DNA of 64,000 bases from an uncultured virus (IMG/VR IMGVR_UViG_3300037357_000283) (taxonomy: Duplodnaviria; Heunggongvirae; Uroviricota; Caudoviricetes), in IMG/VR virus record IMGVR_UViG_3300037357_000283, one strand, 5' to 3'. Of the stretch, positions 3,504-52,890 are shown one piece after another. Position 1 is the first letter of the stretch, and every line of letters begins with the position of its first letter. Both the position numbers and the translations under genes were made by a program. The notes under the pieces were generated by a model. That model did not search any database and had not been told where the DNA came from. It worked only from the letters and a program-made list of their open reading frames with translations.

Positions 3504-3618
3504 GGGCTTCATCAAGGCCCGATGTGTCCCTTACTGGGACATAACCAGCCGGATGGCTGGCCTTGCCTGTTTTTGGTGAGATACTCAGTGTCTCACCCCC
3601 ACGGGCACGGATTGATGG
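3504..3618 (+). ncRNA. sgRNA-like structured RNA cassette, copy 1
   Basis: One of 7 near-identical copies; compensatory CCAGCC/GGCTGG and GCCTGT/ACGGGC stems; ends GGATTGATGG. Confidence 0.75.
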
Positions 3619-3702
3619 GAGAACCCTACTCCGAGGTAAACAGGCACACGACTGGGTCGGCGAAAGCTGATTGGGTCGTTTTTTGCAGCACCTTAGCTGC
3701 TG

Positions 3703-3735
3703 CCAGCCAGGCGAACGTTCGTCTGGCTGGTTTTT
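3703..3735 (+). terminator. Intrinsic terminator
   Basis: CCAGCCAGGCGAA/TTCGTCTGGCTGG hairpin plus T5. Confidence 0.7.
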
Positions 3736-3772
3736 AATTTACGCCGCCAGTTGGCGGCAGAAGGTAGGTTTT

Positions 3773-4315
3773 ATGATGTTGGCTACAGAAATTGTGACGG
3801 CGGGCGAGCTCGAGCGTATGGGGGCGGATGAGTCTTTAGCGGAATGGGCCGCCGACAAGGCGGTGGCAGAGATCTGGGGAACCTGTACCCAGCCGGCTTG
3901 GATGTTGTGGTTGGGGGTTAAGTGGGGAATTGACCGGCGGGTAATGGTGCGGGCTGCGGCCCGTTGTGCCCGCACGGTGCTGAAATATGTGCCCGCGAGC
4001 GAGGCGCGGCCCGCCGCGGCCATAGAGATGGCGGAGCGGTGGGCGGAGCGGCGAGCGACTTACGCCGAGGTTGCGGCGGCGGCCAAGAACGCTGAAGCCG
4101 CGGAGGTCGGCGTCGAGGCAGCCGACTACGCCGCGGCGGCGGCCGCCGCGGCGGCATTGCTGGTTGACGGCGATGCTGACGTCGCTGCTCTCGCGGCAAC
4201 TTATGCTGCTTTGGCAGCACAAGTTGCTTCCGGCGCGACCGCGATGATGACAGCGGAGCGGGAGCTGGCCGACTTGGTGAGGCGATTAGTGCTGATGCCA
4301 CTCGTCGCCGCCTGA
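3773..4315 (+). CDS. Ala-rich protein with Imm5-like helical domain
   Basis: CARTVL...ARPAAAIEMAERWA pattern; start set at ATG 3773. Confidence 0.5.
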   Translation: MMLATEIVTAGELERMGADESLAEWAADKAVAEIWGTCTQPAWMLWLGVKWGIDRRVMVRAAARCARTVLKYVPASEARPAAAIEMAERWAERRATYAEVAAAAKNAEAAEVGVEAADYAAAAAAAAALLVDGDADVAALAATYAALAAQVASGATAMMTAERELADLVRRLVLMPLVAA

Positions 4316-4490
4316 GTGCTACTCTCCCCCAGCCGGCCAGCGACCGGCCGGGGATCAACCCTATCGCCTAACGGCGATTGGGTTGCTTCTGCAGCATTCC
4401 AACTGCTGCAAACCGGCCCGTGGATTGTTTCACCACAAAGTCCGCCACGCAATCCGAGAGTGGCGGCGACCCCTTCGACCCGGTCTGATC

Positions 4491-4525
4491 GGGGAGCCGG
4501 CCGCAAGGCCGGCTCCCCTTTCTTT
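4491..4525 (+). terminator. Intrinsic terminator
   Basis: GGGGAGCCGGCC-GCAA-GGCCGGCTCCCC plus T-rich tail. Confidence 0.7.
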
Positions 4526-4608
4526 AGTTATCAATTGGTGCGACAATATCCGGCGGCAGGTCCCTGGTCAGGTTGGCCCGGATCTTCGCCGCCCTTAAAG
4601 GAGCCCTC

Positions 4609-5025
4609 ATGCGTTGTCCGCAAATTTTCTTTTTGGTTCTTTTTGTTGGTCTGGCTTTTTTGTCCGCGGGTTGCAGCACCAATCTGGAGACGGCGGGCTT
4701 TGGCCCGACCGCGCTGGATGTCTGCAACCGGCATGATGCTTACGTCAATGCGGACAAAACACTGACACCGGCCGTCCAGACCGCCGATCTGGCGGAGAGC
4801 GTTTTTTTGCGTACGGAGATCAGCAGCAATACCTCCGTACCCGCAGCTACCGTGCAGACGCCGATCCTCGACGTCGCCAACCGCCAGGACGCCTACGTCA
4901 AGGCCGACGCTACGTTGACGCCCTTATATTACCGTATCGACCTGCGGGATACCGACCTCCTGCGGACGCTGCTCGGACAGCCGATCGTCAATGGGGCTTT
5001 GACCCAGTCGACGACAACGCCTTGA
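4609..5025 (+). CDS. Putative lipoprotein
   Basis: Signal peptide with LSAG-C lipobox; RBS AAGGAG; internal repeat DVxNRxDAYVxADxTLTP. Confidence 0.65.
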   Translation: MRCPQIFFLVLFVGLAFLSAGCSTNLETAGFGPTALDVCNRHDAYVNADKTLTPAVQTADLAESVFLRTEISSNTSVPAATVQTPILDVANRQDAYVKADATLTPLYYRIDLRDTDLLRTLLGQPIVNGALTQSTTTP

Positions 5026-5039
5026 CCCCTGGGCCTAAG

Positions 5040-5057
5040 TGTATTTCCAGAAATACA
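5040..5057. promoter_or_regulatory. Palindrome TGTATTT-N4-AAATACA, copy 1 of 7
   Basis: Identical arms at 7 intergenic sites upstream of genes. Confidence 0.7.
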
Positions 5058-5091
5058 AAGCTATTATTAACTCCAGACAGGGAACCTCATC

Positions 5092-5475
5092 ATGACCCAA
5101 GTAAACCCAATCACCCCATCGACACCGCCAGCCGTGACGCCGCTGATCTCCGTGAACGTACCCAGCGTCAACGCCCTGAAAAACGCCGCCGTAGCGGCGC
5201 TGGTCGCGGCACTCAATGGGATTGTCCAGGGCGCCGCCAGCGATATTCAGAATTTCGTTGAAGCGATTGTCCAGGATGCCATTGAAGCCGCTGCGGTCAA
5301 CGACACCGTGGCGCTGGCCAACCTCAACGACGAACGGACCATCCTGCAGGAGATTAACCGGGTCCGGGTTGCCGATAACGCGACGCAGGCGTTTACGGCG
5401 GTGACCGGCGTGCTGCTCAATTTCGTCGTACAGTTGATTACGACTGCAGCTGCGGCCAGCATTACCGCAGCTTAA
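5092..5475 (+). CDS. Hypothetical protein
   Basis: 127-aa ORF followed by a terminator-like hairpin. Confidence 0.65.
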   Translation: MTQVNPITPSTPPAVTPLISVNVPSVNALKNAAVAALVAALNGIVQGAASDIQNFVEAIVQDAIEAAAVNDTVALANLNDERTILQEINRVRVADNATQAFTAVTGVLLNFVVQLITTAAAASITAA

Positions 5476-5898: not shown

Positions 5899-5936
5899 GC
5901 TTGCGGGCGTACCCTAAACGGTATATCCTGCCGGGT

Positions 5937-10442: not shown

Positions 10443-10520
10443 ATGGCACGCGATGCTCAACGTGATGGCCTCGTCGCCCGATCTTGCAAAGATCTTTCGG
10501 ATCAAGTAAGTTTTGTTTTT

Positions 10521-10668
10521 GGGCTACATCAAGGCCCGATGTGTCTCCTACAGAGATATAACCAGCTGGATAGCTGGCTTTGCCCGCTTTTTGGTGAGAT
10601 ATTCAGTGTCTCACCCCTGCGGGCACGGATTGATGGGCTGTCTCACCCCTGCGGGCACGGATTGATGG
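10521..10668 (+). ncRNA. sgRNA-like cassette, copy 2, with extra 29-nt repeat (10640-10668)
   Basis: Scaffold 10521-10636, 3-nt gap, second repeat; TTGCAA-17-TAAGTT promoter at 10484-10512. Confidence 0.75.
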
Positions 10669-18453: not shown

Positions 18454-19125
18454 TGACAGAACCACTTCTTGTTCGCAGCTATACCGGTGGACTGGCTAAT
18501 CGTCTGCTGTCGCTGGCAACGGTTAGCGTGATTGCCGCAGCGCGGCAGACAACGTGCGATTATCTCTGGTTGCCCGACGCGCATTGTCCGGGTGATTTTG
18601 CAGATGTTTTTGCCCCGTTAGCAACTTTAGGGCGTCAGATTGGTGCCGCAGAATGGGCCGAGCGCGTTACCACACCAGGGCGCCGCGATTGGTGGTATGG
18701 TAACTGGAATCACGCGACGTTAGCTGAGCGTGCCGCTGTTTTGAAAATTTCAACGCAGCGGCTCTATCGTCGCTGTGGTGTGATTTTTCGCCAGCTGCAG
18801 CCTGCGCCGAAAGTACGGAAACGACTTGAAATGTTTTCGCGGGAGTGGCGACCTGTTGGTGACTGCATTGGCGTGCATATTCGCCGGAGTGATTTGAATT
18901 TTTTGGATAAATCAGCAGCACAGCGAGATGTGCAATTGTTCAAACTTTTGGACGAATATGTTGCCGATGAACCTGATACCGGGTTTTTCGTTGCGACGGA
19001 CAATCCAGTTTCGCTGGAAGCGATGCAAAAGCGGTATAAAGCGCGTATTTTTTCTTTTTTGCCGGTATGGCAAAACGCAACCGCGCTTCGGCGTACTAGC
19101 TTGCTGGATGCCGGGGTTGATTTAT

Positions 19126-20464: not shown

Positions 20465-20626
20465 TTGCGTTGGCATATTGCCGGCGGATTATCGGCACAC
20501 AGACATCAACTTTCAGTCAACTCGCTTCGCAGCTTCGGGACAGTCCGCTGGAGCAAGCGGAGGAGTGCTGATACACTGGGTGGCAGCACGGCTTGGATGC
20601 CAGTGGATTTCTAGCCAAGGATGGTC

Positions 20627-40370: not shown

Positions 40371-40443
40371 TTGACTTCAATTAGCCTATCGCATATAAAG
40401 TGAGCCGCCAACTTTGGCGGCTCACTTTGTTTTAGGAGATTTA

Positions 40444-41682
40444 ATGACCAAGACTCCTCGCGAATATGCTCAAGAACGTAATGCAAGAGGTTTGTGTTGT
40501 TCATGCGGTAATCAACATCTACCCGATAAAAGTCGATGCGCTGAGTGTGATGCGAAAGCTAAAGAAAAGTACAGATTAAAGAGAGGCCCGAAAAAAGTCG
40601 TCGAACGTTCAATACGTAAAGAACAGCTCGCTGCAGCCTCGAAGCGTTATTACGAAAATAAAAAGGCTCAAGGACTTTGTCCGACCGCTGGTTGTCATTT
40701 GCCAGCATCTGCAGATTCTATTTACTGTATGTTTCACCTTGAACAGCAACGAACACGTCAGACTCTAAAAGCAGCAGTGAAAGCTGTAGAGAAAACGAAA
40801 GAGATAAAGCAGCAGATTGAGGTCAGGCGATCTGCCGGGCTTTGCGTTGATTGTGAATCAACGGATCTGTTTAATAAATTACGTTGTCGTAATTGCGAGG
40901 CTAACTGGTTGGTTAGGGAGAATAATCTCACGCGATACGCCGCACGGTTGCGAGTTGGATTATGTCAACAATGTGACGCTGTTGTATCCGAGGGGCAAAA
41001 ATATTGTGAGGTTTGCACAGGTAAAGCTACCGAAAGACGCGAGCAACGTGCTGCTGCCGGTTTATGTGTTGTCTGTGGAACAATTCCACCTGCAGCAGGC
41101 AGACGACTTTGTCAGAGGTGTCTCGATCGCGTTAAAGAAGTCTACCGTGAACGGCAGGCCCAGGGGCTATGCGCTCAGTGTGGTAATACCGCAGTTGTAC
41201 ATGGTAACTCGCGATTCCTATGTGAATCTTGCTGCGTTCTTAGCCGTGCGCGTTATCGTAAACGTCACGCTGCGGCTCGCCGGCAGATCCTTGATGCCTA
41301 CGGTAATAAATGTGCCTGTTGTGGCGATCCACGAGAGTGGGGATTACAACTTGACCACGTAAACAATGACGGCAACGTGCATCGGCGACTTCTGGCGGGG
41401 GTTAACAAAAGTTCCGTTACTTATCGTGTATATTCGCAGGTGATTCGCGAGGGTTTTCCCAAGGACAAGTATCAGCTTCTTTGTAGCCAGTGCAACACCG
41501 GCAAAGCCCGTAACAACGGTGTCTGCCCTCACGTCCACGAACGTGCCGTTCTCGGTGGCCGCCTTGCCGTCACCCCTGAAGACTTCGCCGCCGTTGCCGC
41601 CGCTCTTGCCGCTTTGGAGCTCACCGGCGCCCCCGAAGACTTCGCCGGCGCCGTCCCTCCTGTTGCATCTCCCGTCTCCTAA
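40444..41682 (+). CDS. HNH endonuclease with tandem CxxC zinc-finger repeats
   Basis: CACCG...LQLDHVNNDG...LCSQCN; many upstream Cys pairs; AT-richer DNA; RBS AGGAG. Confidence 0.75.
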   Translation: MTKTPREYAQERNARGLCCSCGNQHLPDKSRCAECDAKAKEKYRLKRGPKKVVERSIRKEQLAAASKRYYENKKAQGLCPTAGCHLPASADSIYCMFHLEQQRTRQTLKAAVKAVEKTKEIKQQIEVRRSAGLCVDCESTDLFNKLRCRNCEANWLVRENNLTRYAARLRVGLCQQCDAVVSEGQKYCEVCTGKATERREQRAAAGLCVVCGTIPPAAGRRLCQRCLDRVKEVYRERQAQGLCAQCGNTAVVHGNSRFLCESCCVLSRARYRKRHAAARRQILDAYGNKCACCGDPREWGLQLDHVNNDGNVHRRLLAGVNKSSVTYRVYSQVIREGFPKDKYQLLCSQCNTGKARNNGVCPHVHERAVLGGRLAVTPEDFAAVAAALAALELTGAPEDFAGAVPPVASPVS

Positions 41683-41759
41683 CCGTTATACTCCACACCT
41701 TGGCACGTTCGGTACATCCTTACGTGCATGGCCGACGTGCTCCTACTTCTGGAATCCCT

Positions 41760-41918
41760 ATGGACAAATCACTTTTATTCTGGCTCGTATACGTCATTTC
41801 CGTCATCGTTACCGTGTTTTTGGGCTGGCCGCTCAACCGGACGAGTGGGCAATGGCTGGTAATTCTCCTGCTCCTCGGGATTCTCGGCTGGGGTGTGTTC
41901 GGGCCCGTGGTCAGGTGA
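41760..41918 (+). CDS. Small two-TM membrane protein
   Basis: 52 aa, two hydrophobic helices. Confidence 0.6.
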   Translation: MDKSLLFWLVYVISVIVTVFLGWPLNRTSGQWLVILLLLGILGWGVFGPVVR

Positions 41919-41932
41919 TTTGAAAAGTTTTT

Positions 41933-42109
41933 GGGCTACATCAAGGCCCGATGTGTCCCTTACCGGGACATAACCAGCTGGATAGCTGGCCTTGCCTGCT
42001 TTTTGGTGAGATACGTAGTGTCTCACCCCTGCAGGCACGGATTGATGGTGGTTGATCAACAGGCCGGTGATCAGCAGCCCGTCGCGCCCCTGCGGGTACG
42101 GATTGATGG
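41933..42109 (+). CRISPR. sgRNA-like cassette, copy 3, with repeat-32 nt spacer-repeat mini-array
   Basis: Scaffold to 42048, spacer 42049-42080, degenerate repeat 42081-42109. Confidence 0.65.
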
Positions 42110-42150
42110 TCCTGTTGCATCTCCCGTCTTCTAACCGTTATACTTCATCT

Positions 42151-42239
42151 GGTGGCCATCCATGGACGGTGGCCAAGTCACGGATGACGCCCAATCACGG
42201 ATGATGCGAAGCCGGCCCTATGCCCTGGGGCCGGCTTTT
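42151..42239 (+). ncRNA. CsrB/Rsm-like small RNA (three CANGGANG hairpins)
   Basis: TTGCAT-18-TATACT promoter; CATGGACG and CACGGATG x2 in stem-loops; terminator 42209-42239. Confidence 0.6.
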
Positions 42240-42256
42240 GTATTTCCACAAATACA
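42239..42256. promoter_or_regulatory. Palindrome TGTATTT-N4-AAATACA, copy 6
   Basis: Exact arms. Confidence 0.7.
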
Positions 42257-42361
42257 CCCTATGCGCCTGCCTAAATAAAAGACCGTTTTGCGTCACAATA
42301 GATGTAGGCCATCGTAGCTCTGCGTAGAGCTGGTGACCTGTTTTTAACCTGGAGAACAGCT

Positions 42362-43036
42362 ATGGAAGACACGAATAAGAATACCGGCGGCCGGAACACC
42401 GGCATCCAGAACACTGGCCACTGGAACGCCGGCAGCTGGAACACCGGCAGCCGGAACACCGGCGACTGGAACACCGGCGGCCGGAACACCGGCAGCCGGA
42501 ACACCGGCGACTGGAACACCGGCAGCCAGAACACCGGCTACCAGAACACCGGCGACTGGAACACCGGCGACCATAACACCGGCGACCAGAACACCGGCGA
42601 CTGGAACACCGGCGACCAGAACGCTGGCTTTTTCTGCACGGAAACTCCGTCGCTGAGTTTCTTCGATAAGCCAACTAATTTGACATGGGAGCAGGCAATT
42701 GAGCTGATACCTTATGTCGAATTGTCCATCGGCGCGGTATTTATCCATAGTGACGCCATGACGGATAAAGAGAAGCTCGCGCACCCAGAACATGAAGTCA
42801 TTGGTGGGTACCTGAAGAACTACAACTTAAAACTTCAGGAAGCCTTCCCGTTGGCGTGGAAGAAAATGTCGGATGAAGAAAAGGCCAAGTGGCTGGCGCT
42901 GCCTAATTTCAACGCCGAGAAGTTCCTGAAATGCACCGGTGTCGACGTCCGGCCGCAGAGCAAACCCAAGATAGCGACAGCCAAGGTGCGGTTGTCGGAT
43001 GGTACCGTGGTAGAGGGTGAGGTCGTGGCAGACTGA
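42362..43036 (+). CDS. NTGxx pentapeptide-repeat protein, paralog A
   Basis: 15-nt tandem units; near-identical to 47167-47790. Confidence 0.8.
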   Translation: MEDTNKNTGGRNTGIQNTGHWNAGSWNTGSRNTGDWNTGGRNTGSRNTGDWNTGSQNTGYQNTGDWNTGDHNTGDQNTGDWNTGDQNAGFFCTETPSLSFFDKPTNLTWEQAIELIPYVELSIGAVFIHSDAMTDKEKLAHPEHEVIGGYLKNYNLKLQEAFPLAWKKMSDEEKAKWLALPNFNAEKFLKCTGVDVRPQSKPKIATAKVRLSDGTVVEGEVVAD

Positions 43037-43092
43037 TCAAACTAAAGCCGCCAGCTCTACGTGGGGCTGGCGGCTTTTTACTTGGAGAACCG

Positions 43093-43566
43093 ATGACAAA
43101 TATTCAGTACAAGATTGGTGATGCCACTTTTCCTGATTCGCGCGGGAATAAGATCATCGTCCATGTTTGTAACGACGCTGGTGGTTGGGGGCGTGGTTTT
43201 GTTTTAGCGATTTCAAAACGGTGGCCTCAACCCGAAATGGCCTACCGCCGGTGGTACCGGGAACGGGAGCAAAATAGTTTTTGTCTCGGTGCGGTGCAAT
43301 TCGCTCGGGTTGAATCAGATATTTGGGTAGCCAACATGATCGGGCAGCATGGATTGGCGCGCGAAGCGGATAGGCCACCGATCCGATATGAAGCGGTCGA
43401 GGCTGCGTTGCTACAAGTTGCCGAGAAGGGAATTGAGCTTGCGGCGACCATTCATATGCCGCGGATCGGCTGCGGACTGGCAGGGGGAAAGTGGGGAAAA
43501 ATCGAGCCGATTATCTTGCGTACGTTGTGTGCTAAGGGTGTTGATGTGTCGGTCTACGATCTCTAA
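43093..43566 (+). CDS. Macro domain protein (ADP-ribose hydrolase-like)
   Basis: GDAT, HVCNDAGGWGRGF, MPRIGCGLAGG. Confidence 0.85.
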   Translation: MTNIQYKIGDATFPDSRGNKIIVHVCNDAGGWGRGFVLAISKRWPQPEMAYRRWYREREQNSFCLGAVQFARVESDIWVANMIGQHGLAREADRPPIRYEAVEAALLQVAEKGIELAATIHMPRIGCGLAGGKWGKIEPIILRTLCAKGVDVSVYDL

Positions 43567-43584
43567 CTCAGGAAAGGAAACAGC

Positions 43585-43908
43585 ATGTCTACAACAACTG
43601 CCAGCGATCCGCTGGTTCATTCGCGCTGGGAGCAGATGAAACTTTCCGGCGAGTGCATTTACTTTGCGATTGATAGCGCCTGGGTTTTCCTGGCAGCACC
43701 GGGCGGGCCGAGTGGCCGGGTTTATTTCGATAAACAACGTCCCGTAATAGAGAGAAATCTCTATCACGTGGATCGGCTTTGCGCTGGTGTCTGGCATCAC
43801 ATGTGCTGGGTCAGCGCCGACAACAAAAAGAGTTGTCAGGCACTTATTGCGGTGGTTAAAGAGGATTTCGGCGCCATCGAGCGCCAGATCCGCATTACTG
43901 TCGCGTAA
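43585..43908 (+). CDS. Hypothetical protein
   Basis: RBS AGGA. Confidence 0.55.
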   Translation: MSTTTASDPLVHSRWEQMKLSGECIYFAIDSAWVFLAAPGGPSGRVYFDKQRPVIERNLYHVDRLCAGVWHHMCWVSADNKKSCQALIAVVKEDFGAIERQIRITVA

Positions 43909-43926
43909 ATTTCACTTGGAGAATCT

Positions 43927-44619
43927 ATGGATCTGATCAAGCAAATCAATGAAAACATCGGCGACGTCGCTGATGATATTCTCGAAGAAGTTATGGAGCT
44001 CGTGGATCTCGTGCAATGTCGGTGCCTGCACGAAAAAGATTTGATCGATTTGACCGACGCGATAACAGCGTACAGGACGTCGATGGACATTGAAATGCTG
44101 TCCTTGAACATGGATTTGCAGGATTTCGATGAACGCATTTCCGCTGAAGTCATGCGCCGGCGCAACGCAGCTTATCGGGTTCAAGTCGCTTCGATGGGTG
44201 AGAAATCCGAGGCTACGCTGACCGGCGAGCAACCAGTCGACGCCGCGAAGATTCGTGAAGCAAAGTTCCAGCGCCGGCTGGCCTCGGTGGTGAAACTTGT
44301 AGGTCTTAACACATCCGAGATTATTATTCTTCGGGAGTTGGAGTTATTGTGGCAGGCTCGGCCTCAAGATGCTCAGGCGCGGTTGGACATTTATAAGCTC
44401 ACAATCATCGATTACCGCGAGACTCCCGACGGTAAACCGATACAGCAGAAAATCCACCGGGAGGCGATTGTTCGGGCGGCGGATCCTGTGCAGGCACGCA
44501 GGCTGCTTAGTTCTCAAGATCATCTGTACGCGGCCCTCTGGGACGATATTTACGGAATCGATTGCCGGTTGCTGGCCGCCGCAGTAGACGGCGAGGCTGA
44601 AGTTTTATCGCTCAAATAA
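43927..44619 (+). CDS. Hypothetical protein
   Basis: RBS GGAG; acidic helical N-terminus. Confidence 0.6.
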   Translation: MDLIKQINENIGDVADDILEEVMELVDLVQCRCLHEKDLIDLTDAITAYRTSMDIEMLSLNMDLQDFDERISAEVMRRRNAAYRVQVASMGEKSEATLTGEQPVDAAKIREAKFQRRLASVVKLVGLNTSEIIILRELELLWQARPQDAQARLDIYKLTIIDYRETPDGKPIQQKIHREAIVRAADPVQARRLLSSQDHLYAALWDDIYGIDCRLLAAAVDGEAEVLSLK

Positions 44620-44731
44620 GGGCTTTTCTTCTGGCTGATGGATTTGCCACCGAAGCCGCGTAGAAGGTATACTAAAAACCTTAGCCGCCTGGTGGCAATA
44701 ACGCCGCTGGACCGTAGAACAGGACTACACA

Positions 44732-45127
44732 ATGCCCAACGCTTCACCGCAAATTCCACAGCTGCCTGATCCCAAGACCGCTTACGACCATCTGTTTCAG
44801 ACGGTCCACAGTGGTGCATTCTTCAATCGCCTTGCCCAGCGCGGCATCAACGTGACCTCGCCCAAGCAAGCTGCGGACGCCCTGGCAACCGCCGAGCAGC
44901 TACGTAGTTTGGAAGGTGATCCCCGCTTCAAAGCAGCTAACGATAGTGACCCCTTTGCCCAAGCCAGGGCGGCTTTGGATAAGATGGTTGGCGGACCGGC
45001 ACCCGAGCAGAGTCGCAAGCAGGCGGCGGTGCAGTTGATGAATGACGCAGACATCTACAACAGCATTCTCAGCCTCAAGAGCGCTGAGGCGGCCCGTATC
45101 GCGCAGCAGTTGCAGCCGGTGGCCTGA
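44732..45127 (+). CDS. Putative head protein (KxA-rich)
   Basis: Five KxA motifs; TTGCCA...TATACT promoter upstream. Confidence 0.6.
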   Translation: MPNASPQIPQLPDPKTAYDHLFQTVHSGAFFNRLAQRGINVTSPKQAADALATAEQLRSLEGDPRFKAANDSDPFAQARAALDKMVGGPAPEQSRKQAAVQLMNDADIYNSILSLKSAEAARIAQQLQPVA

Positions 45128-45140
45128 GGTTAATGTTTTT

Positions 45141-45300
45141 GGGCTGCATCAAGGCCCGATGTGTCTCCTACAGAGACATAACCAGCTGGATAGCTGGCCT
45201 TGCCCGTTTTTGGTGAGATACGTAGTGTCTCACCCTCGTGGGCACGGATTGATGGTTCTTTATATACGGTCGTCTTGCCCCTGTGGGCACGGATTGATGG
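45141..45300 (+). CRISPR. sgRNA-like cassette, copy 4, with repeat-16 nt spacer-repeat mini-array
   Basis: Repeat 45227-45255, spacer 45256-45271, repeat 45272-45300. Confidence 0.7.
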
Positions 45301-45326
45301 GCCGGAGTTTTAACTAGGAAATTCTG

Positions 45327-45671
45327 ATGAAAAGTTCACTATATACGGTCGTGCAAAACACATCGGGCGTTGCCATGCGATTTGGGTTTCTGCCGCCACA
45401 TGGACAACTATTGACTCCCGGACAACTGTTCACCGTATTTGGTGACCTCCGTTCGGCGATTATGCGTGGTGCGCGGAACACCAGCCGGCGCGATCATAGT
45501 GCCCTGATTGCTGCTTTGGAGTCGGGGAAGCTGACGATCATCCACACGCCGTCACCGATCATGCGGGATCTGTTCTCTGGTCAGCCCAAGCTCATTCAGC
45601 TGTATAATGGCACACTGAGTCTGGTCAACCCTGGCTGGACAACCAGCACCGAGACCAGCATTCCGGCTTGA
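45327..45671 (+). CDS. Hypothetical (putative virion) protein
   Basis: 114-aa ORF; its 5' end matches the adjacent spacer. Confidence 0.65.
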   Translation: MKSSLYTVVQNTSGVAMRFGFLPPHGQLLTPGQLFTVFGDLRSAIMRGARNTSRRDHSALIAALESGKLTIIHTPSPIMRDLFSGQPKLIQLYNGTLSLVNPGWTTSTETSIPA

Positions 45672-45798
45672 CCGCGCCGGCAACAACTCACGAGCGGCCG
45701 GTGTTTTTGCGTTTTCCACCGGCATTGTTTTCCCCGCACCCGGCTGTCGTCGCCGGGTGCGTTTTTTATTTGCTTTCGTTTGTTGGTAAGCTGCTGGC

Positions 45799-47067
45799 AT
45801 GTCACCAATAATTTCGGCTTTTACGCCGTGTCACGATACCCGCTGGTTGCTGGAAACCTGGCACGGCCTGCAGGTACAGAACTATCCCGACAAGGAATGG
45901 GTCATCCTGCTTAACGGCGCCGCGGTCGATCAAGAGATCCCCGCGGTCATTCGACAGTGTCCCTGGGTGAAGATCTTCACCGCGGCGTCAAGCCCGCCAA
46001 TAACCGGCAGCAGTATTGGGGCTTTGAAGAAAACAACCGTTGCCTGCTGCCAGGGCGATATTTATCTGGAACTCGATGCGGATGACGTTCTTGTTCCGGG
46101 GGCCCTGCCAGCGGTTGCCCGGGCCGCTGCCGAAGGCGGGGAGTTCATCTACAGTGATGCGGCTTGTTTTAATATCAAACCCGGGGGGCAGATTGAGAGC
46201 TGGGCCTACCCAGCCCGCACCGGCTGGGCCGAATACCCTGTGAAAGTTTATGGGCACACGCTTCGGGCTACGGCCTGTTTTCCTGTGACACCGCGCGTGC
46301 TCTGCGAGATTTACTGGGCTCCCGATCATCTCCGGGCCTGGACGCGGGAAGCTTACGAGAAGGTCGGCGGGCACGATGCCAAGCTGGCTGTTGGCGATGA
46401 TCACGACCTTATCTGCCGAACCTACATCGCCGGCCGGAAGTTTCGCCATACCGGCGGTTGTCACTATCTCTACCGTTGGCACGGCAACAATACAGTACCG
46501 AAGCGAGCGGAGATGATTAAAAAAATCCAGACAGCCAATCGGGTGAAGTATCTCGACGGTTTGATTAACTACTGGACCGCCGATCTCGGGCAAGCGCCGT
46601 TGATTCTGCACGTCGAAGCCGCCGCGGGTCGCTGGCGGCCCGCAGCACCCGGTGACCTTCTTGGGCGAACCGGACTGGCGGCTATCTCAGCGGAGAACCT
46701 TCTACAGTTCTGTGCGGGGCCCGATATCCCTGAATTTTTCAATGCCGCCTGGGATGCCTTGTTGCCGGGGGGTTATCTCTCGGTCTCTGTCCCGGTGGGC
46801 CGCTGGGCTGATCAGCACCCCCTGCACCGGACCCGGTTTAATCCCAACAGCTTTCTCTATTACACGGAGCCGGCGTTTGCGGTACAAATCCCGAACCTAC
46901 GCTGCCGGTTTGATCTGATTCAGTCCCGGGTGTTTTTCCCGTCAACAGCAGCCAAGCGGCTGCGGATGCCTGTACTTCAGGTTCATCTGGCAGCGCTGAA
47001 GGGCCAACGCTGGCCGCGAAGCCATTGGCCGCATCAACCGTGGCCCGTCGCGGCGGGTGGTATTTGA
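45799..47067 (+). CDS. GT2 glycosyltransferase fused to a methyltransferase-like C-terminal domain
   Basis: ELDADD, GDDHDL; C-terminal LLPGGYLSVSVP...HPLH. Confidence 0.75.
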   Translation: MSPIISAFTPCHDTRWLLETWHGLQVQNYPDKEWVILLNGAAVDQEIPAVIRQCPWVKIFTAASSPPITGSSIGALKKTTVACCQGDIYLELDADDVLVPGALPAVARAAAEGGEFIYSDAACFNIKPGGQIESWAYPARTGWAEYPVKVYGHTLRATACFPVTPRVLCEIYWAPDHLRAWTREAYEKVGGHDAKLAVGDDHDLICRTYIAGRKFRHTGGCHYLYRWHGNNTVPKRAEMIKKIQTANRVKYLDGLINYWTADLGQAPLILHVEAAAGRWRPAAPGDLLGRTGLAAISAENLLQFCAGPDIPEFFNAAWDALLPGGYLSVSVPVGRWADQHPLHRTRFNPNSFLYYTEPAFAVQIPNLRCRFDLIQSRVFFPSTAAKRLRMPVLQVHLAALKGQRWPRSHWPHQPWPVAAGGI

Positions 47068-47166
47068 TCTCTAATCCCTAAATAAAAGACCGTTTTGCGT
47101 CACAATAGATGTAGGCCATTGTAGCTCTGCGTAGAGCTGGTGACCTGTTTTTAACCTGGAGAACAG

Positions 47167-47790
47167 ATGGAAGACACGAATAAGAACACCGGCTACGGGG
47201 ACACCGGCAGCGGGAACACCGGCAGCTGGAACACCGGCAGCCGGAACACCGGCAGTTGGAACACCGGCCGCCAGAACACCGGCAGCCAGAACACCGGCCA
47301 CAGGAACACCGGCAGCAGCAACACCGGCGACAGGAACACCGGCAGCTGGAACACCGGCAGTTGGAACACCGGCAGCTGGAACACCGGGTTTTTCTGCACA
47401 GAAACTCCTTCGCCGAGCTTCTTCGATAAGCCAACTAATTTGACATGGGAGCAGGCAATTGAGCTGATACCTTATGTCGAATTGACCGTCGGCGCGGTAT
47501 TCGTCTTAAGTTATGAGATGACGGATAACGAGAAGCTCGCGCACCCAGAACACGCAACCATCGGCGGCTATCTGAAGAACTACAACTTAAAACTTCAGGA
47601 GGCCTTCCCGCTGGCTTGGCAGAAAATGTCGGATGAGAAAAAGGCCAAGTGGCTGTCGCTGCCCAACTTCGACGCCGAGAAATTCCTAAAGTGTACCGGC
47701 GTCGACGTCCGGCCGCAGAGCAAACCCAAGATGGCCAGGGTGCGGTTGCCGGATGGCACCGTGGCAGAGTGCGAGGTCGTAGCGGACTGA
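47167..47790 (+). CDS. NTGxx pentapeptide-repeat protein, paralog B
   Basis: Duplicate of 42362-43036 with fewer repeats. Confidence 0.8.
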   Translation: MEDTNKNTGYGDTGSGNTGSWNTGSRNTGSWNTGRQNTGSQNTGHRNTGSSNTGDRNTGSWNTGSWNTGSWNTGFFCTETPSPSFFDKPTNLTWEQAIELIPYVELTVGAVFVLSYEMTDNEKLAHPEHATIGGYLKNYNLKLQEAFPLAWQKMSDEKKAKWLSLPNFDAEKFLKCTGVDVRPQSKPKMARVRLPDGTVAECEVVAD

Positions 47791-47853
47791 TCAAACTAAA
47801 GCCGCCAGCCCTACGTGGGGCTGGCGGCGGAAGAAATAAGGGTGATTTTTACT

Positions 47854-47969
47854 GGGCTACATCAAGGCCCGATGTGTTCCTTACCGGGACATAACCGGCT
47901 GGATAGCTGGCCTTGCCTGCTTTTTGGTGAGATATTCAGTATCTCACCCCTGCGGGCACGGATTGATGG
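47854..47969 (+). ncRNA. sgRNA-like cassette, copy 5
   Basis: Full scaffold ending GGATTGATGG. Confidence 0.75.
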
Positions 47970-48082
47970 GCTTCGCAGTCAAGCTGAGTTTTTGTGTCGA
48001 ATTGAGCGTTCTTCTATACCTCGCGGCGGCTAAATCGGAGCCACCACGGGGTTTCTTGTTTTCCGATACTTGGAGGTGCTAA

Positions 48083-48541
48083 ATGTTTAGCACAGTGTTT
48101 GCGTTTTGTCGTGATTTGTTCGGGCTACTTGTCCGGACGGCTCTGGCGATTGTCGGAGTTGTGGCGATTCTCTTTATGGCGGGCACTCTGGTTATGTGCG
48201 CAAGTACGTTTTTTCTGCGTGCATTTACTTTTTCGTTCGCCGCCGTGCCGTGGCCGTTGGTCAGTTTGGGTAGTATCTTGATCGGAGTTGGCTGGGCAGT
48301 TGGGCTAAGTACCCGCCAACAGACGATTCATTTGGGCGCGGGCCGCTTGGTCCATTTTATGGATCGATTGCTGAATCCTCGCCGCTACTACCGGGTTGAC
48401 CAGATTTGGCGACTGTATTACGAGGAACGCATCAAGCAGTTTCGGCGGCAACCACAACCACGGCCGCAACCACAAATAAATGTAGACGCCGATGCCGATG
48501 ATCGCGCAACTGCTGAGGAGAGTATCGGTCGCCGTATTTAA
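48083..48541 (+). CDS. Membrane protein
   Basis: RBS GGAGG; two hydrophobic segments. Confidence 0.6.
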   Translation: MFSTVFAFCRDLFGLLVRTALAIVGVVAILFMAGTLVMCASTFFLRAFTFSFAAVPWPLVSLGSILIGVGWAVGLSTRQQTIHLGAGRLVHFMDRLLNPRRYYRVDQIWRLYYEERIKQFRRQPQPRPQPQINVDADADDRATAEESIGRRI

Positions 48542-48668
48542 TCGCTTGTGTTCTCCAAGGAGGGGCGGGTGTCCATTCTGGCCCCGCCCCTTTTTTATTT
48601 GCTGTAGGGATTTTCCTACAAACCGCGGAGCCTGCGGCGGTGCTTATCGCAGGCATTAGGGAGTTGGC

Positions 48669-48884
48669 ATGTCCTCTGGTAAAAAGCAGCAGCGTGATGA
48701 TTTTACAATTTGTGGTACACCAACCCGGGCGGAAGTTTTCGTCCGTGGGCGACGCGTAGCGGTCTGTTGTCCTCCGCCAACCGGAGCGATCAAAAGCCCG
48801 TTGATGCGGGAGTTCTTTGAGCAGCTGTATGGGGGTGGACGCGACGTTAGAAAACTAGCTCACCGGGTCGCCAGTAGCGACTGA
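48669..48884 (+). CDS. Hypothetical protein
   Basis: RBS GGGAG; followed by a hairpin. Confidence 0.5.
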   Translation: MSSGKKQQRDDFTICGTPTRAEVFVRGRRVAVCCPPPTGAIKSPLMREFFEQLYGGGRDVRKLAHRVASSD

Positions 48885-48941
48885 TTGTTAAGGGTGCGAA
48901 CGCAGTTGCGTTCGCACCCTTTGTTTTAACACTGGAGAAGC

Positions 48942-49496
48942 ATGAAAAGTACACCAGGGCAACGTTGGCAGGTTCTGTTGGGGGCGTTATTCGTACTGAC
49001 GGATCGCGGGATTCGACAGCTTCGCAATGGACTACAAGACCAGCGCGAGTATTTGGTTAAGCGGAAGTGCGATGTCCAGATGCACTTGTATAATCTCGAG
49101 ACGATTCGTCTCGATGCTTTGGATCTCGAGAAAGAGGTGCTGGCGGCGCGGCAGTTCAAGTTCATTTTTTTAGCGGAACTCAAAGTTCTGCTGGAGGAAA
49201 CGATTAAGGAATGCCAACAGATTCCGCTTAAAAGCGGGAAAATGCTGAATTATCTCTGTCAGCGATATCTCTTGGATATTGCCAAGCTGAAGGCACCGGC
49301 GACAGCAACGGATGTTCCAGCGGCAGTAGAAATTCCATCAATCCGTGCCCGCAGGGGTGAGACACTGAGTATCTCACAAAAAGCAGGCAAGGCCAGCTAT
49401 CCAGCTGGTTATGTCCCGGTAAGGGACACATCGGGCCTTGATGTAGCCCAAGAACAAAACTTATCTGATCCGCAAGATCTTTGCAAGATCGGGTGA
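48942..49496 (+). CDS. Hypothetical protein; 3' part reads through antisense cassette copy 6
   Basis: RBS GGAG. Confidence 0.5.
   Translation: MKSTPGQRWQVLLGALFVLTDRGIRQLRNGLQDQREYLVKRKCDVQMHLYNLETIRLDALDLEKEVLAARQFKFIFLAELKVLLEETIKECQQIPLKSGKMLNYLCQRYLLDIAKLKAPATATDVPAAVEIPSIRARRGETLSISQKAGKASYPAGYVPVRDTSGLDVAQEQNLSDPQDLCKIG
49335..49449 (-). ncRNA. sgRNA-like cassette, copy 6
   Basis: Reverse-complement copy with the same TTGCAA-17-TAAGTT promoter as copy 2. Confidence 0.75.
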
Positions 49497-49586
49497 CAAG
49501 GCCAGCGCATTTTCGAACGTAAAATCCATCGATTGCTACAACGGGTGGCTCGTGGAAGACAAATAACAGCCTAAAAGGAACACTCC

Positions 49587-49775
49587 ATGACAAACGGCGA
49601 ATTGATTGACCGGCTTCTCAAGCTCAACAGACCAACCGGTCAAGCGTTAGTGGAAATCACCGAGCCATACGACGACGATGCACAGACGCTGGTTGAACCA
49701 ATCCAGAGCCTGCGCATCGACGAGAAAACTGGCAACATCATCCTCAGTGCCGTCTCTCATTTTACCACACACTGA
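49587..49775 (+). CDS. Hypothetical protein
   Basis: RBS AAGGA. Confidence 0.5.
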   Translation: MTNGELIDRLLKLNRPTGQALVEITEPYDDDAQTLVEPIQSLRIDEKTGNIILSAVSHFTTH

Positions 49776-49844
49776 CACTGTGAGGATTAGAACTACGAGC
49801 GAACCTACGGCTTATATCCACTCGTCACTAACTAGGAGAACGCT

Positions 49845-50273
49845 GTGGCTGATTATAAAACACTGCTCGATATGCGAAATACGTGCCGGGCTGTTAGCGC
49901 CGGCACCACTCAATGGGGGGCCGACGAACATACCAAAATCAAATGGCTGGCCGGTCAACTTTCTATCCTCGCCGGGCACCTGGCCGATCAAATGATTCCA
50001 GTATCTCCGCAGCCTCCGCAACCGCCCGCAGACGACGACCATGTTGCCAAAGGCTGCATTTCGTTTGCAAGCACGCCACCAACGTATACGGGGAATGATT
50101 CCCTGCAAAACCTATGGCCCCTGCTCGCCGATGCACTACGCTCGATGGACCGTCAAGCCTGGATGGGGCGATTGTGGGCCATCGTTAATCAGGCTCACTC
50201 ATCTGGCTTTTCCGAAGGGATGATTAGCGCCCAAAAGGCAGACGACGAGGCCCGGCCAGGAGACATCCAATAA
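49845..50273 (+). CDS. Hypothetical protein
   Basis: RBS AGGAG, GTG start. Confidence 0.55.
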   Translation: MADYKTLLDMRNTCRAVSAGTTQWGADEHTKIKWLAGQLSILAGHLADQMIPVSPQPPQPPADDDHVAKGCISFASTPPTYTGNDSLQNLWPLLADALRSMDRQAWMGRLWAIVNQAHSSGFSEGMISAQKADDEARPGDIQ

Positions 50274-50311
50274 CCAGCAAATTCGACAAGCACCAACTTA
50301 AGGAGAACTCT

Positions 50312-51549
50312 GTAAACGACCGTCGCCTTAAAGGCGATGGCTTTCAAGATCAAGATGTGTAGCTGAAACCACAACATCCCGTCGAGATTCGCAGTGGTTT
50401 ACAACACCGCCGCCTGCGATATTCAGCGCGCCGACGACATCGGCATGCATCGTACCGCAGGTTGTGCATCGAAATACGTCCCCACTCCGCGTGCCGCGCT
50501 CGCCGCACTTCGGACAGGTTTGGGACGTGTAGGCCGGATTGACGAACTCCACGGCGATTCCGGCGCGAGTGGCCTTGTAGGAAATAAAGGTTTGCAACTG
50601 GCCGAAGGACCAGCCCGACATCATCCGGTTCATGTGGCGATTCCTGATCTTGCATCGTTGACGGATATGGACGAGCTGTTCCAGGCGGATGATACCGCTG
50701 TGTGCCTTAACCGCCTCGCCGACGATGTGTTTGCTCAGGACGTGATTTTCATGATGAATGCGTCGATTCTCATAGCCGGACAGCCGGCGAAGAACCCGCT
50801 TGGCTCCAGCCGTTCCCTTGCTCTGCAAGCTGGCGCGGATGCGAGCCCGATCCTCCTTGAACTTTCGTCGCCGTTGGCCGTCATACAAAGTGCCATGGCT
50901 GGTGGCTGCGGTGTTTCTGATACCAAGATCGACGCCCATTGGCGGCCCGGTGACAGGCTCGGCGTCGGCATCCTCGACAACGATATGCGCAAACCATTGT
51001 GGACCCTTGCGAACAATCGTCGCCGCCGTAGGTTTCTTGCCGGCCAAGGCACGGCGTTGAAAATCTCCAAGCACAAGCGGAACATGGATGCGACCACCCA
51101 TGACGGTGAGCGAAACGGTTTCATCTTTCTCCCGATAATCGAAAATTCGCGCGTCGTAATCAATACTGCTTGGCCGAAACGCGACAGGATTTTGCTTCCG
51201 CTTCTTCGCGGCGGTCATCGCGCCGGCAACGCGGCGAACAGCACGGACGGCAAGGTTCGCGGACAGCTTGAACCGCTCGCGGATCATTCCGTAAGCCAAG
51301 TGGTGGAGTTTGATGTTGTTCGAGACGTTAGCAGGAACAGCAATCGCCAGTGTGGCATTGCAGGCATCGGCAAACGCCGTAGCCGTGGCCGACAGTTGCG
51401 CCGCCATTGTTGGCGTCGGGGCCATCTTGCAGCAAATAGTCCGCTTGCTCATAGTGAATATTGTATCACTACTGAAATGGCGAGTAAACCACGAAAGGCC
51501 GCTGCTTCCTCTGTCGCCTGAAGGCAACAGTCTCCGCAGCGGGAATTTT
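50312..51549 (-). mobile_element. IS200/IS605-family element (no tnpA)
   Basis: Terminal hairpins around tnpB; ends defined by identity with the mini-copy at 52210-52256. Confidence 0.8.
50328..51452 (-). CDS. tnpB: RNA-guided endonuclease TnpB
   Basis: GVDLG, LEQL, YTSQTCPKCG, HADVVGALNI; RuvC D/E/D intact. Confidence 0.9.
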   Translation of the reverse strand: MSKRTICCKMAPTPTMAAQLSATATAFADACNATLAIAVPANVSNNIKLHHLAYGMIRERFKLSANLAVRAVRRVAGAMTAAKKRKQNPVAFRPSSIDYDARIFDYREKDETVSLTVMGGRIHVPLVLGDFQRRALAGKKPTAATIVRKGPQWFAHIVVEDADAEPVTGPPMGVDLGIRNTAATSHGTLYDGQRRRKFKEDRARIRASLQSKGTAGAKRVLRRLSGYENRRIHHENHVLSKHIVGEAVKAHSGIIRLEQLVHIRQRCKIRNRHMNRMMSGWSFGQLQTFISYKATRAGIAVEFVNPAYTSQTCPKCGERGTRSGDVFRCTTCGTMHADVVGALNIAGGGVVNHCESRRDVVVSATHLDLESHRL

Positions 51550-51735
51550 ATGACTTCAATGTGGGTGATCTAGCCAACGAGGACCTGACCCCCATCAACA
51601 AATGCCTTGGCATGACCGGCATCTACATCGAAGCAGTGAACACATTCAGCATGGATACACCCGAGTCAGCTTGGGTGTTCGATACCGTGCTCGCTGACCG
51701 TGATGCGATCACTGCGAAATAGAAAGGAATCAATC

Positions 51736-52260
51736 GTGAAACAAACTATCAAACTTATTGTGCTGGACGGGGGCTCCTCACAAATCATCCGCTACTGCAA
51801 AAACCACTTCGGCCCGACCGATAAGCGTAATCGCGTTGAAGACATGCGAAAGCTAGTTGCCAACCGCAACAATGGCATTACCGAGTGGATCAATGATTAT
51901 GACATGATGCTCTCCCTCTTGGCTGTGTTGCGTGAAGTGGAGAAACTGCCCATCGAAAGCCACACGATGAGCTACTTCATGTCGGTCATCCTTTTCGGCG
52001 GTCAATATGGCCGCCCCATCCTGTCCGAGAAATATAAGGGGGCATTCCCGCATTTCGTCGATGCGGTGTACGACATCCTCGCGAGCCTCCAGATCCGACA
52101 GCCCATTCCCGACACCAATGAACTGCAAGATTTGATCGTGCTGGCCCCGCTCGATGAAGAGCTTGGCAAGGCGCTGGGGTTCGATCCTGCGATAGGAGCC
52201 ACATGCAAGGTAAACGACCGTCGCCTGAAGGCAACAGTCTCCGCAGCGGGAATTTTATGA
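51736..52260 (+). CDS. Hypothetical protein
   Basis: RBS AAGGA, GTG start; C-terminus supplied by the mini-IS. Confidence 0.55.
   Translation: MKQTIKLIVLDGGSSQIIRYCKNHFGPTDKRNRVEDMRKLVANRNNGITEWINDYDMMLSLLAVLREVEKLPIESHTMSYFMSVILFGGQYGRPILSEKYKGAFPHFVDAVYDILASLQIRQPIPDTNELQDLIVLAPLDEELGKALGFDPAIGATCKVNDRRLKATVSAAGIL
52210..52256 (-). mobile_element. 47-bp mini-IS (fused right and left ends of the 50312-51549 element)
   Basis: GTAAACGACCGTCGCCT joined to GAAGGCAACAGTCTCCGCAGCGGGAATTTT. Confidence 0.8.
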
Positions 52261-52757
52261 TCATTCCGTACGAACTGACCGACCAATGCGACCAACCCAA
52301 CGACAAGCCCACACTGCCGATCAAGATCGTCGGCAACGGCGGCCAGATCCTCATCGGATTTCAAGGGTACGGTGAGCATGGCGCGGATGTCGAACACGCT
52401 ACCCCGGTTCTGATTGAAGTGTGGGACGGCAAGCTCCGCGTCATCATCTGGTCTGACGTAAACCAGGAAGACCCGACACACACGATAGAGCTGGAGGCAG
52501 CGAGAGAGAACAACCGTCAGAACCTCGATTGGGCCGAGACACACTCTGCCGCTGCAAAGAAGCTCGTGGAAGAAAATATTTGGAATAGTTATTGGCTGTT
52601 TCCGCGTAGCGATTGGCAGTACGAGACTGCCAATGGTGATACCAGCCTCGGCTACTGGAACTGGGTTGACAACCAGATTGAAAGCCATTCCACAGATTCG
52701 ATTGAAGATCGGAGTGATCTCGAATCCCGTATGGAGACGTTCTCCGAGAACGAATAA
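52257..52757 (+). CDS. Hypothetical protein
   Basis: ORF; alternative start at 52203. Confidence 0.6.
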   Translation: MIIPYELTDQCDQPNDKPTLPIKIVGNGGQILIGFQGYGEHGADVEHATPVLIEVWDGKLRVIIWSDVNQEDPTHTIELEAARENNRQNLDWAETHSAAAKKLVEENIWNSYWLFPRSDWQYETANGDTSLGYWNWVDNQIESHSTDSIEDRSDLESRMETFSENE

Positions 52758-52774
52758 CCCGAAGTTGTGTTTTT

Positions 52775-52890
52775 GGGCTACATCAAGGCCCGATGTGTCT
52801 CCTACAGAGACATAACCAGCTGGATAGCTGGCTTTGCCTGCTTTTTGGCGAGATATTCAGTGTCTCACCCCTGCGGGCGTGGATTGATGG
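52775..52890 (+). ncRNA. sgRNA-like cassette, copy 7
   Basis: Full scaffold followed by a hairpin and T-tract. Confidence 0.75.

Follow-up and report, generated by a model that had tools for sequence, protein, structure and literature searches.

A repeated structured element in a peat phage

The stretch of DNA analysed in the present study (hereafter the window) is 64 kb of a large peat phage, IMG/VR record IMGVR_UViG_3300037357_000283, and it carries seven copies of a structured element of ~115 nucleotides (nt), each ending in a 29-nt repeat (GTCTCACCCCTGCGGGCACGGATTGATGG). An earlier note on this DNA had placed the copies at 3504, 10521, 41933, 45141, 47854, 49449(−) and 52775, and all of them were recovered by alignment and by a covariance model (Table 1; + and − are relative to the window strand). 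Built from the seven copies, the model matched exactly those seven in the window at 137–150 bits, with the next-best match at 18.6 bits, and the mean column identity of the full elements was 93%. The repeat was found ten times at up to three mismatches compared with none in 100 shuffles, and still ten times when up to eight mismatches were allowed. Conservation ends at GATGG in all seven copies, the sharp stop that had been described before, and at the 5′ side it fades over ~6 nt (GTTTTT before GGGC), two of which are put in hairpin 1 by RNAalifold.

Folding of the element

The minimum free energy of copy 41933 was −59.4 kcal/mol (z = −6.1), and none of 200 shuffles folded as well. Hairpin 1 (GGGC...GCCC, loop UACAUCAAG) is followed by hairpins 2 and 3 and then by a long interrupted helix, in which the anti-repeat CCUUGCCUGC-U5-GGUGAGAU is paired across an 8-nt loop with the 29-nt repeat; the 3′ tail AUUGAUGG is unpaired. 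The topology is that of four stems plus a six-base strand, adjoining the variable 3′ flank, that may form a pseudoknot. Of the 319 pair cells in the alignment, 99.1% were paired, the CAUCAA/UUGAUG pseudoknot included, a value reached by one of 500 column shuffles; control partners slid by 1–3 columns were 30–41% paired. The anti-repeat:repeat helices 5 and 6 (19 pairs) were 98.6–100% paired, in agreement with the earlier claim that a short loop joins an anti-repeat to a 29-nt repeat.

G-U pairs are present in at least one copy at 12 of the 46 pairs, and in all copies at three of these. On the − strand they would be C-A, and the − strand folds worse (−52.6 compared with −59.4 kcal/mol). The constraint acts on + strand RNA or + strand single-stranded nucleic acid; a Cas9-style layout is therefore ruled out, and the − strand (Cas9-type) reading of the element was dropped. 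Variant letters of the metagenome copies were mapped onto the fold by column arithmetic. Opposite U they are A>G at columns 81 and 85 and G>A at column 70, and opposite G they are C>T at columns 41, 71 and 86 and T/C at column 69; the others fall at loop positions, with column 79 as the single exception.

Nine pairs vary on one side yet remain paired on the + strand, and two pairs contain C-A cells. Two of the covariations claimed in the earlier note were found again: GTGTCCC/GGGACAT versus GTGTCTC/GAGACAT corresponds to pair 30–38 (CG in four copies, UA in three), and CCAGCT/AGCTGG versus CCAGCC/GGCTGG to pair 51–56 (UA in six, CG in one). The third, GCCTGC/GCGGGC versus GCCTGT/ACGGGC, is plausible but hinges on the placement of a 1-nt gap in copy 3504. 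Two other classes of structured DNA do not fit. The element is not one long imperfect palindrome, as an integron attC site would be; and whereas a miniature inverted-repeat transposable element would have inverted repeats at its extreme ends and target-site duplications, the sole inverted words (CATCAA/TTGATG) sit 6 nt inside the 5′ end and flank duplications at two of the seven copies do not bracket the element.

Solo repeats and mini-arrays

Three further copies of the 29-nt repeat, missed by the earlier note, stand alone, each behind a full element (Table 1), and these three are the only two-repeat units in the window; no long array was seen. The repeat pair at 10521 is a perfect 32-nt tandem duplication. 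The other two solo repeats differ from the consensus at T4G, A6G and C17T (42081) and at C5T, A6G and C12T (45272), and five of these six substitutions still pair with the anti-repeat through G-U, which is what one would expect if the solo repeats have to pair with the anti-repeat as RNA.

The 16-nt spacer of copy 4 together with the next GT agrees with part of the downstream core gene in 16 of 18 bases, the other two (TCA/TCT and CTA/TTA) being synonymous changes in the frame of the gene. With two mismatches this is suggestive only, but the spacer may have been taken from, or be aimed at, another allele of the core gene, with the resident allele spared. A strain with the matching allele was not seen in the contigs of the sample runs, and the spacer plus GT had no exact match in IMG/VR contigs; nor had the first 22 nt of the 32-nt spacer of copy 3. 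Sixteen of the first 18 nt of the latter match a core gene of a related phage (G002), where ~0.09 such matches are expected by chance, and this may be taken as a weak lead.

A 35-nt sequence directly behind the array of copy 3 duplicates the end of the upstream HNH gene at 97% identity, and the two duplicates enclose a 52-codon open reading frame (ORF; read as a two-helix membrane protein), copy 3 and its array. As the origin of this duplication, homing or recombination at the HNH gene is no less likely than a guide-related cause.

The mini-arrays also bear on a reading of the copies as seven orphan CRISPR loci that are independent of trans-activating CRISPR RNA (tracrRNA), in which the 86-nt conserved part would be a leader folding on to the first repeat. 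The conserved part does lie upstream of the first repeat in all three mini-arrays, and leader-repeat hairpins are described for other CRISPR types in PMC13187072, as far as its available text goes. However, if the guide lies 3′ of the repeat, the newest spacer would be blocked by such a hairpin, and four of the seven loci are without any spacer. The 86 nt are moreover G+C-rich and under RNA-structure constraint, unlike the usual CRISPR leader. We consider this reading very improbable.

Table 1 Coordinates of the element copies and associated features in the window
Feature	Position	Strand	Details
Element copy 1	3504–3618	+	138.8 bits; tracr-like 5′ module, 8-nt loop, 29-nt repeat
Element copy 2	10521–10636	+	144.6 bits; unit with solo repeat 10521–10668
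Solo repeat behind copy 2	10640–10668	+	3-nt gap; solo repeat identical with first repeat
52-nt upstream module	10466–10517	+	Ahead of copy 2; hairpin GATCTTGCAAAGATC and end of micro-ORF (...SPDLAKIFRIK*)
Element copy 3	41933–42048	+	149.8 bits; unit with solo repeat 41933–42109
Solo repeat behind copy 3	42081–42109	+	32-nt spacer 42049–42080, then solo repeat
35-nt duplication, upstream part	41658–41692	+	Last 8 codons and stop codon of ORF 40414–41682 (HNH gene)
35-nt duplication, downstream part	42110–42144	+	Directly behind last repeat of copy 3
Element copy 4	45141–45255	+	137 bits; unit with solo repeat 45141–45300
Solo repeat behind copy 4	45272–45300	+	16-nt spacer 45256–45271, then solo repeat
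Spacer near-match	45335–45352	+	Codons 3–9 of core gene 45327–45671
Element copy 5	47854–47969	+	142.6 bits; within accessory block 2
Element copy 6	49335–49449	−	142.6 bits; sole inverted copy
Element copy 7	52775–52890	+	141.6 bits
TnpB1 insertion sequence, ISDra2-like	19143–20466 (approximate)	+	ORF 19201–20415; own left-end and right-end hairpins
TnpB2 insertion sequence	50312–51650	−	ORF 50328–51527; own right end ...GGCGACGGTCGTTTAC

The element in peat metagenomes

Four peat DNA runs contain the stretch, and their contigs were placed on 41000–53500. Depth summed over the element bins was 41–174 compared with ~8–12 alongside, and peaked at 653 at one anti-repeat position to which at least 13 contigs contribute; such depth is not a copy number, but its rise over the element indicates that the samples contain many more copies than seven. 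Contigs of the form repeat-insert-repeat were present in the same samples. Among the inserts listed, most were 26–33 nt long and three were 12–18 nt, and the depth of the array contigs was 9–14 compared with 7.6–12 for the phage flanks. The repeat units in the samples begin at the identical first base of the 29-mer, so they are defined repeats and not random truncations. No empty site for the element was present among the 15 joints listed from the sample contigs.

TnpB genes and candidate effectors

The earlier note had proposed a trans-acting TnpB/Cas12-like protein, whose gene, of the Cas12f, Cas12n or TnpB kind, might adjoin a copy. This was not borne out in the window: no RuvC protein is linked to any of the seven copies, none of them abuts a tnpB gene, and the shortest distance is ~880 nt, at which copy 49449(−) lies downstream of TnpB2 on the same strand. 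Scans with Pfam, NCBIfam and PADLOC took in 57 and 51 of the 77 called ORFs of at least 50 amino acids. Two TnpB genes, which had gone unnoticed before, are present, each in an insertion sequence (IS) of its own (Table 1). TnpB1 aligns over its full length with ISDra2 TnpB (8h1j, E 8e-56) and keeps the D-E-D motifs, by reading; its right end (...CCCCGGCCTTTAGGCCGGTGGAGGATGTCAAT) is 95% identical with IS ends on two plasmids. This IS has no TnpA and a left-end hairpin CACGCCCTTTAGGGCGT, and it sits directly after the stop codon of ORF 18399–19142, amid pieces of the multisubunit RNA polymerase genes. TnpB2 also keeps D-E-D, and its IS has left-end and right-end hairpins of its own. In two runs a variant contig skips this IS (joint 50311→51651), showing that an empty-site allele exists, and a 51-nt mini-derivative at 52210–52260 consists of 41 nt of the left end joined to the right-end tail. 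The covariance model of the element had no match at either tnpB 3′ end, and an Rfam search of both ends gave nothing useful. From their sequences, both TnpBs are to be read as ordinary IS copies outside the element family.

The presence of an active IS of this kind (the empty-site variant of TnpB2 and its mini-derivative) would suit a selfish, omega-RNA-only element, that is, a non-autonomous IS200/IS605-type derivative made of a right end, carrying the scaffold of the right-end RNA (reRNA), and a short left end, with its spread and retention owed to TnpA and TnpB acting in trans, and its 3′ flank serving as a guide against the empty site. The sharp 3′ boundary with a flank in guide position, the 93% identity of copies amid unrelated flanks, the shared orientation of six of the seven and the insertion of copy 45141 relative to the related phage G001 (see below) all agree with it. 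Such transposition would not, however, produce solo 29-nt repeats with fixed ends and 26–33-nt spacers, and the sample joints listed include no empty site for the element. Family scans found no Y1 transposase in the window, and the 5′ flank is loosely conserved (TTTTT, TTACT, TTGCT and TTCTT) and lies partly within hairpin 1. We therefore regard this origin as quite unlikely.

Other candidates for an effector were rejected. Three large ORFs of unknown function are conserved in four to five of five relatives that lack the element and have no sequence match in PDB; they are core phage genes. ORF 40414–41682 has no family match and was read from its motifs as an HNH endonuclease with zinc-ribbon repeats. 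In this ORF approximately seven repeated zinc-ribbon modules (CxxC...CxxC) precede the HNH-like motif, LDHVNNDGNVH...CSQCN. It is present in G002 and absent from the searched part of G001, and is probably a free-standing homing endonuclease. Neither a TnpB-type zinc-ribbon domain nor the element was found in any of the five related phages, so that both are lineage-specific arrivals; within the phage clade they are found together in this window only, which is a weak co-occurrence.

Genomic setting

The window carries genes for a ribonucleotide reductase, for an HK97-type capsid protein and for a fused RNA polymerase β/β′, the next piece of which contains an intein. Relatives of the polymerase at 38–59% identity are found in IMG/VR records of 190–205 kb, one of them complete with terminal repeats, from which a phage genome of roughly 200 kb can fairly be inferred. 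An ORF of 1925 amino acids at 22376–28153 is RNA polymerase β′-like, and its matches to Hint and LAGLIDADG_3 at residues ~335–660 mark an intein carrying a homing endonuclease of the LAGLIDADG type. An 18-nt palindrome (TGTATTTCC..GAAATACA) recurs at 5040, 11832, 22345, 30809, 38192, 42239 and 54979, compared with 0.04 expected by chance; all of its sites are intergenic, mostly shortly ahead of gene starts, and it may be an operator or serve the phage polymerase as a promoter element.

Gene order is common to the window and its relatives G001 and G002, in which the accessory blocks 41761–44619 and 47167–52961 have no homologues. Elements 41933 and 52775 lie at block edges, and 47854 and 49449 inside the second block. 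Copy 4 with its mini-array fills a 199-nt gap between core genes (44732/45327 junction) that are 23 nt apart in G001, and copy 45141 is therefore an insertion; presumably it is transcribed with the flanking core genes. Copy 1 has a promoter-like motif 40 nt upstream (3433–3462) and two terminator-like hairpins downstream, read from the sequence. This 30-nt motif, CTAAATAAAAGMCYGTTTTGYGKCAYAATA, recurs at 42271–42300 and 47078–47107, ahead of the two pentapeptide-repeat genes. The latter (42362–43036 and 47167–47790) are paralogues in the accessory blocks whose 3′ ends are ~86% identical as DNA. A DarG-like macrodomain protein (43093–43566, E 2e-8) is also encoded in an accessory block, and these genes may serve counter-defence.

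The 52-nt module upstream of copy 10521 is common only to this copy and to 49449(−), where it occupies 49453–49504 (90% identity by blastn within the window). Micro-ORFs at 10453–10509 (...SPDLAKIFRIK*) and 49461–49529(−) (...SPDLAKILRIR*) lie 12 nt upstream of these two copies, and a six-frame search of the window found the peptide at these two places only. A gene formerly ahead of the element could have left them as a remnant of its C-terminus.

This setting would be compatible with a structured repeat that has nothing to do with RNA-guided nucleases and serves mRNA processing or stability, regulation, or recombination as a hot spot shuffling accessory cassettes, the extra 29-nt copies having arisen by slippage. 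The copies are intergenic, co-oriented with genes and at accessory-block edges, no effector has been found, and the perfect tandem duplication at 10521, the 35-nt duplication (41658/42110) and the common 52-nt module show local recombination. What such a repeat leaves unexplained are the repeat-spacer-repeat units with 26–33-nt inserts in the samples, the G-U-preserving changes of the solo repeats and the match in topology to omega-RNA (as described in the available text of PMC10097598). On balance we find it improbable.

Relatives in sequence collections

At the gathering threshold Rfam gave no match in the window, and at E values up to 10 only chance-level rows on 41900–42130. Megablast of 15 kb against the phage collection returned nothing, and blastn of the element only a 24-nt chance match in phages and none in plasmids. 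An exact 18-mer of the invariant core had no match in IMG/VR contigs; a 16-mer of the repeat had 14 loci there, none of them matched by the covariance model. A gapped element pattern gave four loci in JGI metagenome contigs, all unrelated on inspection, and an exact 23-mer of the repeat gave none in 185,579 species genomes (one genome per species). A two-repeat pattern was found at 14 loci in IMG/VR and at least 121 in the species genomes, all of them tandem or other repeats, and the repeat was within eight mismatches in none of the latter, bar one chance row. The covariance model had no match in five related phage records of ~200 kb, and sub-strings of the repeat led to no paper in the literature.

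Interpretation

We give about an even chance to the reading in which the copies are natural single guides that are used in trans and seed mini-arrays, for phage competition, homing or the hijack of a host effector. Each element would give rise, by transcription from the + strand, to a natural single-guide RNA, mostly together with the surrounding genes; copy 3504 has its own promoter-like motif. At the 5′ side, three hairpins would make up a tracr-like module that ends in the anti-repeat (CCTTGCCTGC-U5-GGTGAGAT), and the 8-nt loop would connect it to the 29-nt repeat, which resembles CRISPR RNA (crRNA). The UUGAUG at the repeat end would pair with the loop of hairpin 1, forming the pseudoknot next to the variable 3′ flank, which would stand in for the guide. 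We infer a RuvC-type effector, from the TnpB/Cas12 lineage, by which these RNAs would be read in trans; it would not be a resident IS-borne TnpB and would be encoded elsewhere in the ~200-kb phage genome or in the host. Duplication of the crRNA-like half alone, behind three copies, would have given rise to the mini-arrays, and the target of at least one of their spacers looks to be a different allele of a core gene of the phage. The use is likely to be competition with, or homing into, related phages, with the loading or diverting of a host effector as a close second.

In favour of this reading are the strong + strand fold of the seven copies, the G-U evidence on the strand, the variant letters of the metagenome copies, the topology of the ISDra2 omega-RNA (see below), the recurrence of the 29-nt half by itself in the window and in the samples, the pairing kept by the solo repeats, the near-match of the 16-nt spacer, the insertion of copy 45141 and the restriction of the element and of TnpB-type genes to this window within the clade. 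A number of observations weigh against this reading. Among the listed sequencing runs that contain the stretch, none is an RNA run. In the search for a Cas12 or other Cas-like effector, only the two IS TnpBs were found among the scanned ORFs of the window, and no relative of the element was found in any collection searched (Rfam, phage, plasmid, IMG/VR, JGI, species genomes and the five related phages). Covariation is thin because the copies are so similar: only the two pairs given above, out of 46, vary on both sides. The pseudoknot claimed between CATCAA and TTGATG is possible, as the two words are complementary in seven of seven copies, but all six pairs are invariant and hence have no support from covariation. 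The spacers are irregular in length (3, 16 and 32 nt in the window, and some of 12–18 nt in the samples), and five spacers from sample contigs had no match in the window at up to three mismatches. No common 5′ motif precedes the two self-matches (GTCCC versus AAAAG), so that no target-adjacent motif or protospacer-adjacent motif can be read. Every one of the seven tracr-like modules is fused to its own repeat, so that none is seen in free form that could serve the solo repeats. Finally, at copy 52775 the 'guide' position is itself a terminator-like hairpin (52896–52910) followed by a T run. The distributed guide repertoire proposed in the earlier note stands as far as a guide-type layout with a variable 3′ flank is concerned, but 'repertoire' is too strong a word when most of the 3′ flanks are plain neighbouring DNA.

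The high copy count, the guide positions that are arbitrary or taken by a terminator and the lack of an effector in the window could be expected of an RNA anti-CRISPR or decoy. In that case the element would imitate the tracrRNA:crRNA duplex of a tracr-dependent type V system in the host, so as to sequester or mis-program its effector, and the 3′ flank would be irrelevant. It would be the type V counterpart of two precedents (each cited for its available text): vsgRNAs, which are phage-encoded single guides that sequester Cas9 (bioRxiv 10.64898/2026.06.01.729453), and the solitary repeats termed Racrs (PMC10651486). It would also fit that five copies lie within, or border, accessory blocks specific to the lineage, in which the DarG-like macrodomain and the two pentapeptide-repeat proteins are encoded as well. 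Against a decoy, a search of 185,579 species, with one genome per species, gave no host array with the element repeat, the array contigs are at phage depth and not at a different one, and the spacer whose mismatches to a phage gene are synonymous speaks for real targeting. Furthermore, the known vsgRNAs have the Cas9 layout with a 5′ guide, which is excluded for the element by the strand evidence. A decoy role seems to us unlikely.

Returning to natural single guides used in trans, a further and more doubtful step would be to see the element as a living intermediate on the way from a transposon reRNA to a CRISPR locus. An omega-RNA would have left its tnpB and spread in a jumbo phage as RNA-guided homing or competition cassettes, with the crRNA-like half now duplicating together with spacers while the tracr-like halves are still fused; we think this unlikely. 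If the reading as single guides is true, the element would be a natural single guide of type V layout that is present in many copies, unlinked from its effector and with its crRNA-like half already in arrays. Should an effector be found, the element would offer a compact (~115-nt) natural scaffold, a test case for the beginnings of arrays and possibly a new way for phages to compete or to disarm host immunity. If no effector exists, it would still be an abundant and strongly structured phage RNA family without a relative in Rfam or the collections searched.

Relation to known systems

The closest comparison in build is with the omega-RNA of ISDra2. According to the available text of PMC10097598, its 116-nt scaffold comprises four stems, and a pseudoknot connects a region ~100 nt upstream with the bases immediately 5′ of the 16-nt guide; its crRNA-like and tracr-like parts are joined by a tetraloop, so that it is termed a 'natural sgRNA', and the guide-pseudoknot-stem layout is kept in Cas12 guides. 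The element matches this layout, in line with the earlier assignment to a TnpB reRNA or type V tracr:crRNA architecture. Size (~116 nt), four stems, fusion by a small loop, a flank in the position of a 3′ guide and a sharp 3′ boundary are shared with the ISDra2 omega-RNA, and the possible pseudoknot would have the same topology (PMC10097598, within the same text). In contrast with a TnpB omega-RNA, the element is at the 3′ end of tnpB in none of its seven copies and does not resemble the right end of either resident TnpB in sequence. It is multi-copy, and its crRNA-like half is 29 nt long (compared with ~16–20 nt) and is also duplicated alone as array repeats.

The tracr-dependent type V systems (Cas12f, Cas12n and TranC) resemble the element in several respects: a structured tracr has the anti-repeat at its 3′ end, the repeat does not fold on itself, the guide is 3′ of the repeat and there are repeat-spacer units. 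Unlike in these systems, tracr and repeat are fused in every copy of the element, the copies are dispersed, the spacers are irregular and no cas gene is seen in the window. TranC nucleases are described as TnpB-sized and as having arrays and an reRNA that is split, one of them being of caudovirus origin; the element repeat is 29 nt compared with 32–38 nt in the TranC clades (bioRxiv 10.64898/2026.03.27.714800; PMC13565253; as given in the available parts of both). The same sources and PMC10097598, to the extent of their available text, propose that tracr/crRNA pairs stem from the splitting of a TnpB omega-RNA.

Among phage-encoded RNAs, vsgRNAs share with the element a compact natural fusion of crRNA-like and tracr-like parts (bioRxiv 10.64898/2026.06.01.729453). 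They are, however, ~90 nt long, with the guide 5′ and the tracr hairpins 3′, and belong to type II only, whereas the element has the type V layout and many copies per genome; as far as the available text of that report goes, phage-encoded single guides have so far been described for Cas9 only. Racrs and viral mini-arrays are, like the element, CRISPR repeats without cas genes in a phage genome, either single or with one spacer (PMC10651486, in its available part; PMC11656645). Solitary Racr repeats, including those of type V-A, adjoin acr genes (PMC10651486, likewise), and the spacers of viral mini-arrays mostly target related viruses (PMC11656645). Unlike the element, both lack an anti-repeat or tracr-like module in the descriptions available, and their repeat equals a known host repeat; the element repeat, in contrast with Racr repeats, is in none of the collections searched. 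Taken together, these comparisons lead us not to file the element under any of the known systems but to describe it, provisionally, as built like, or perhaps working like, a type V or omega single guide.

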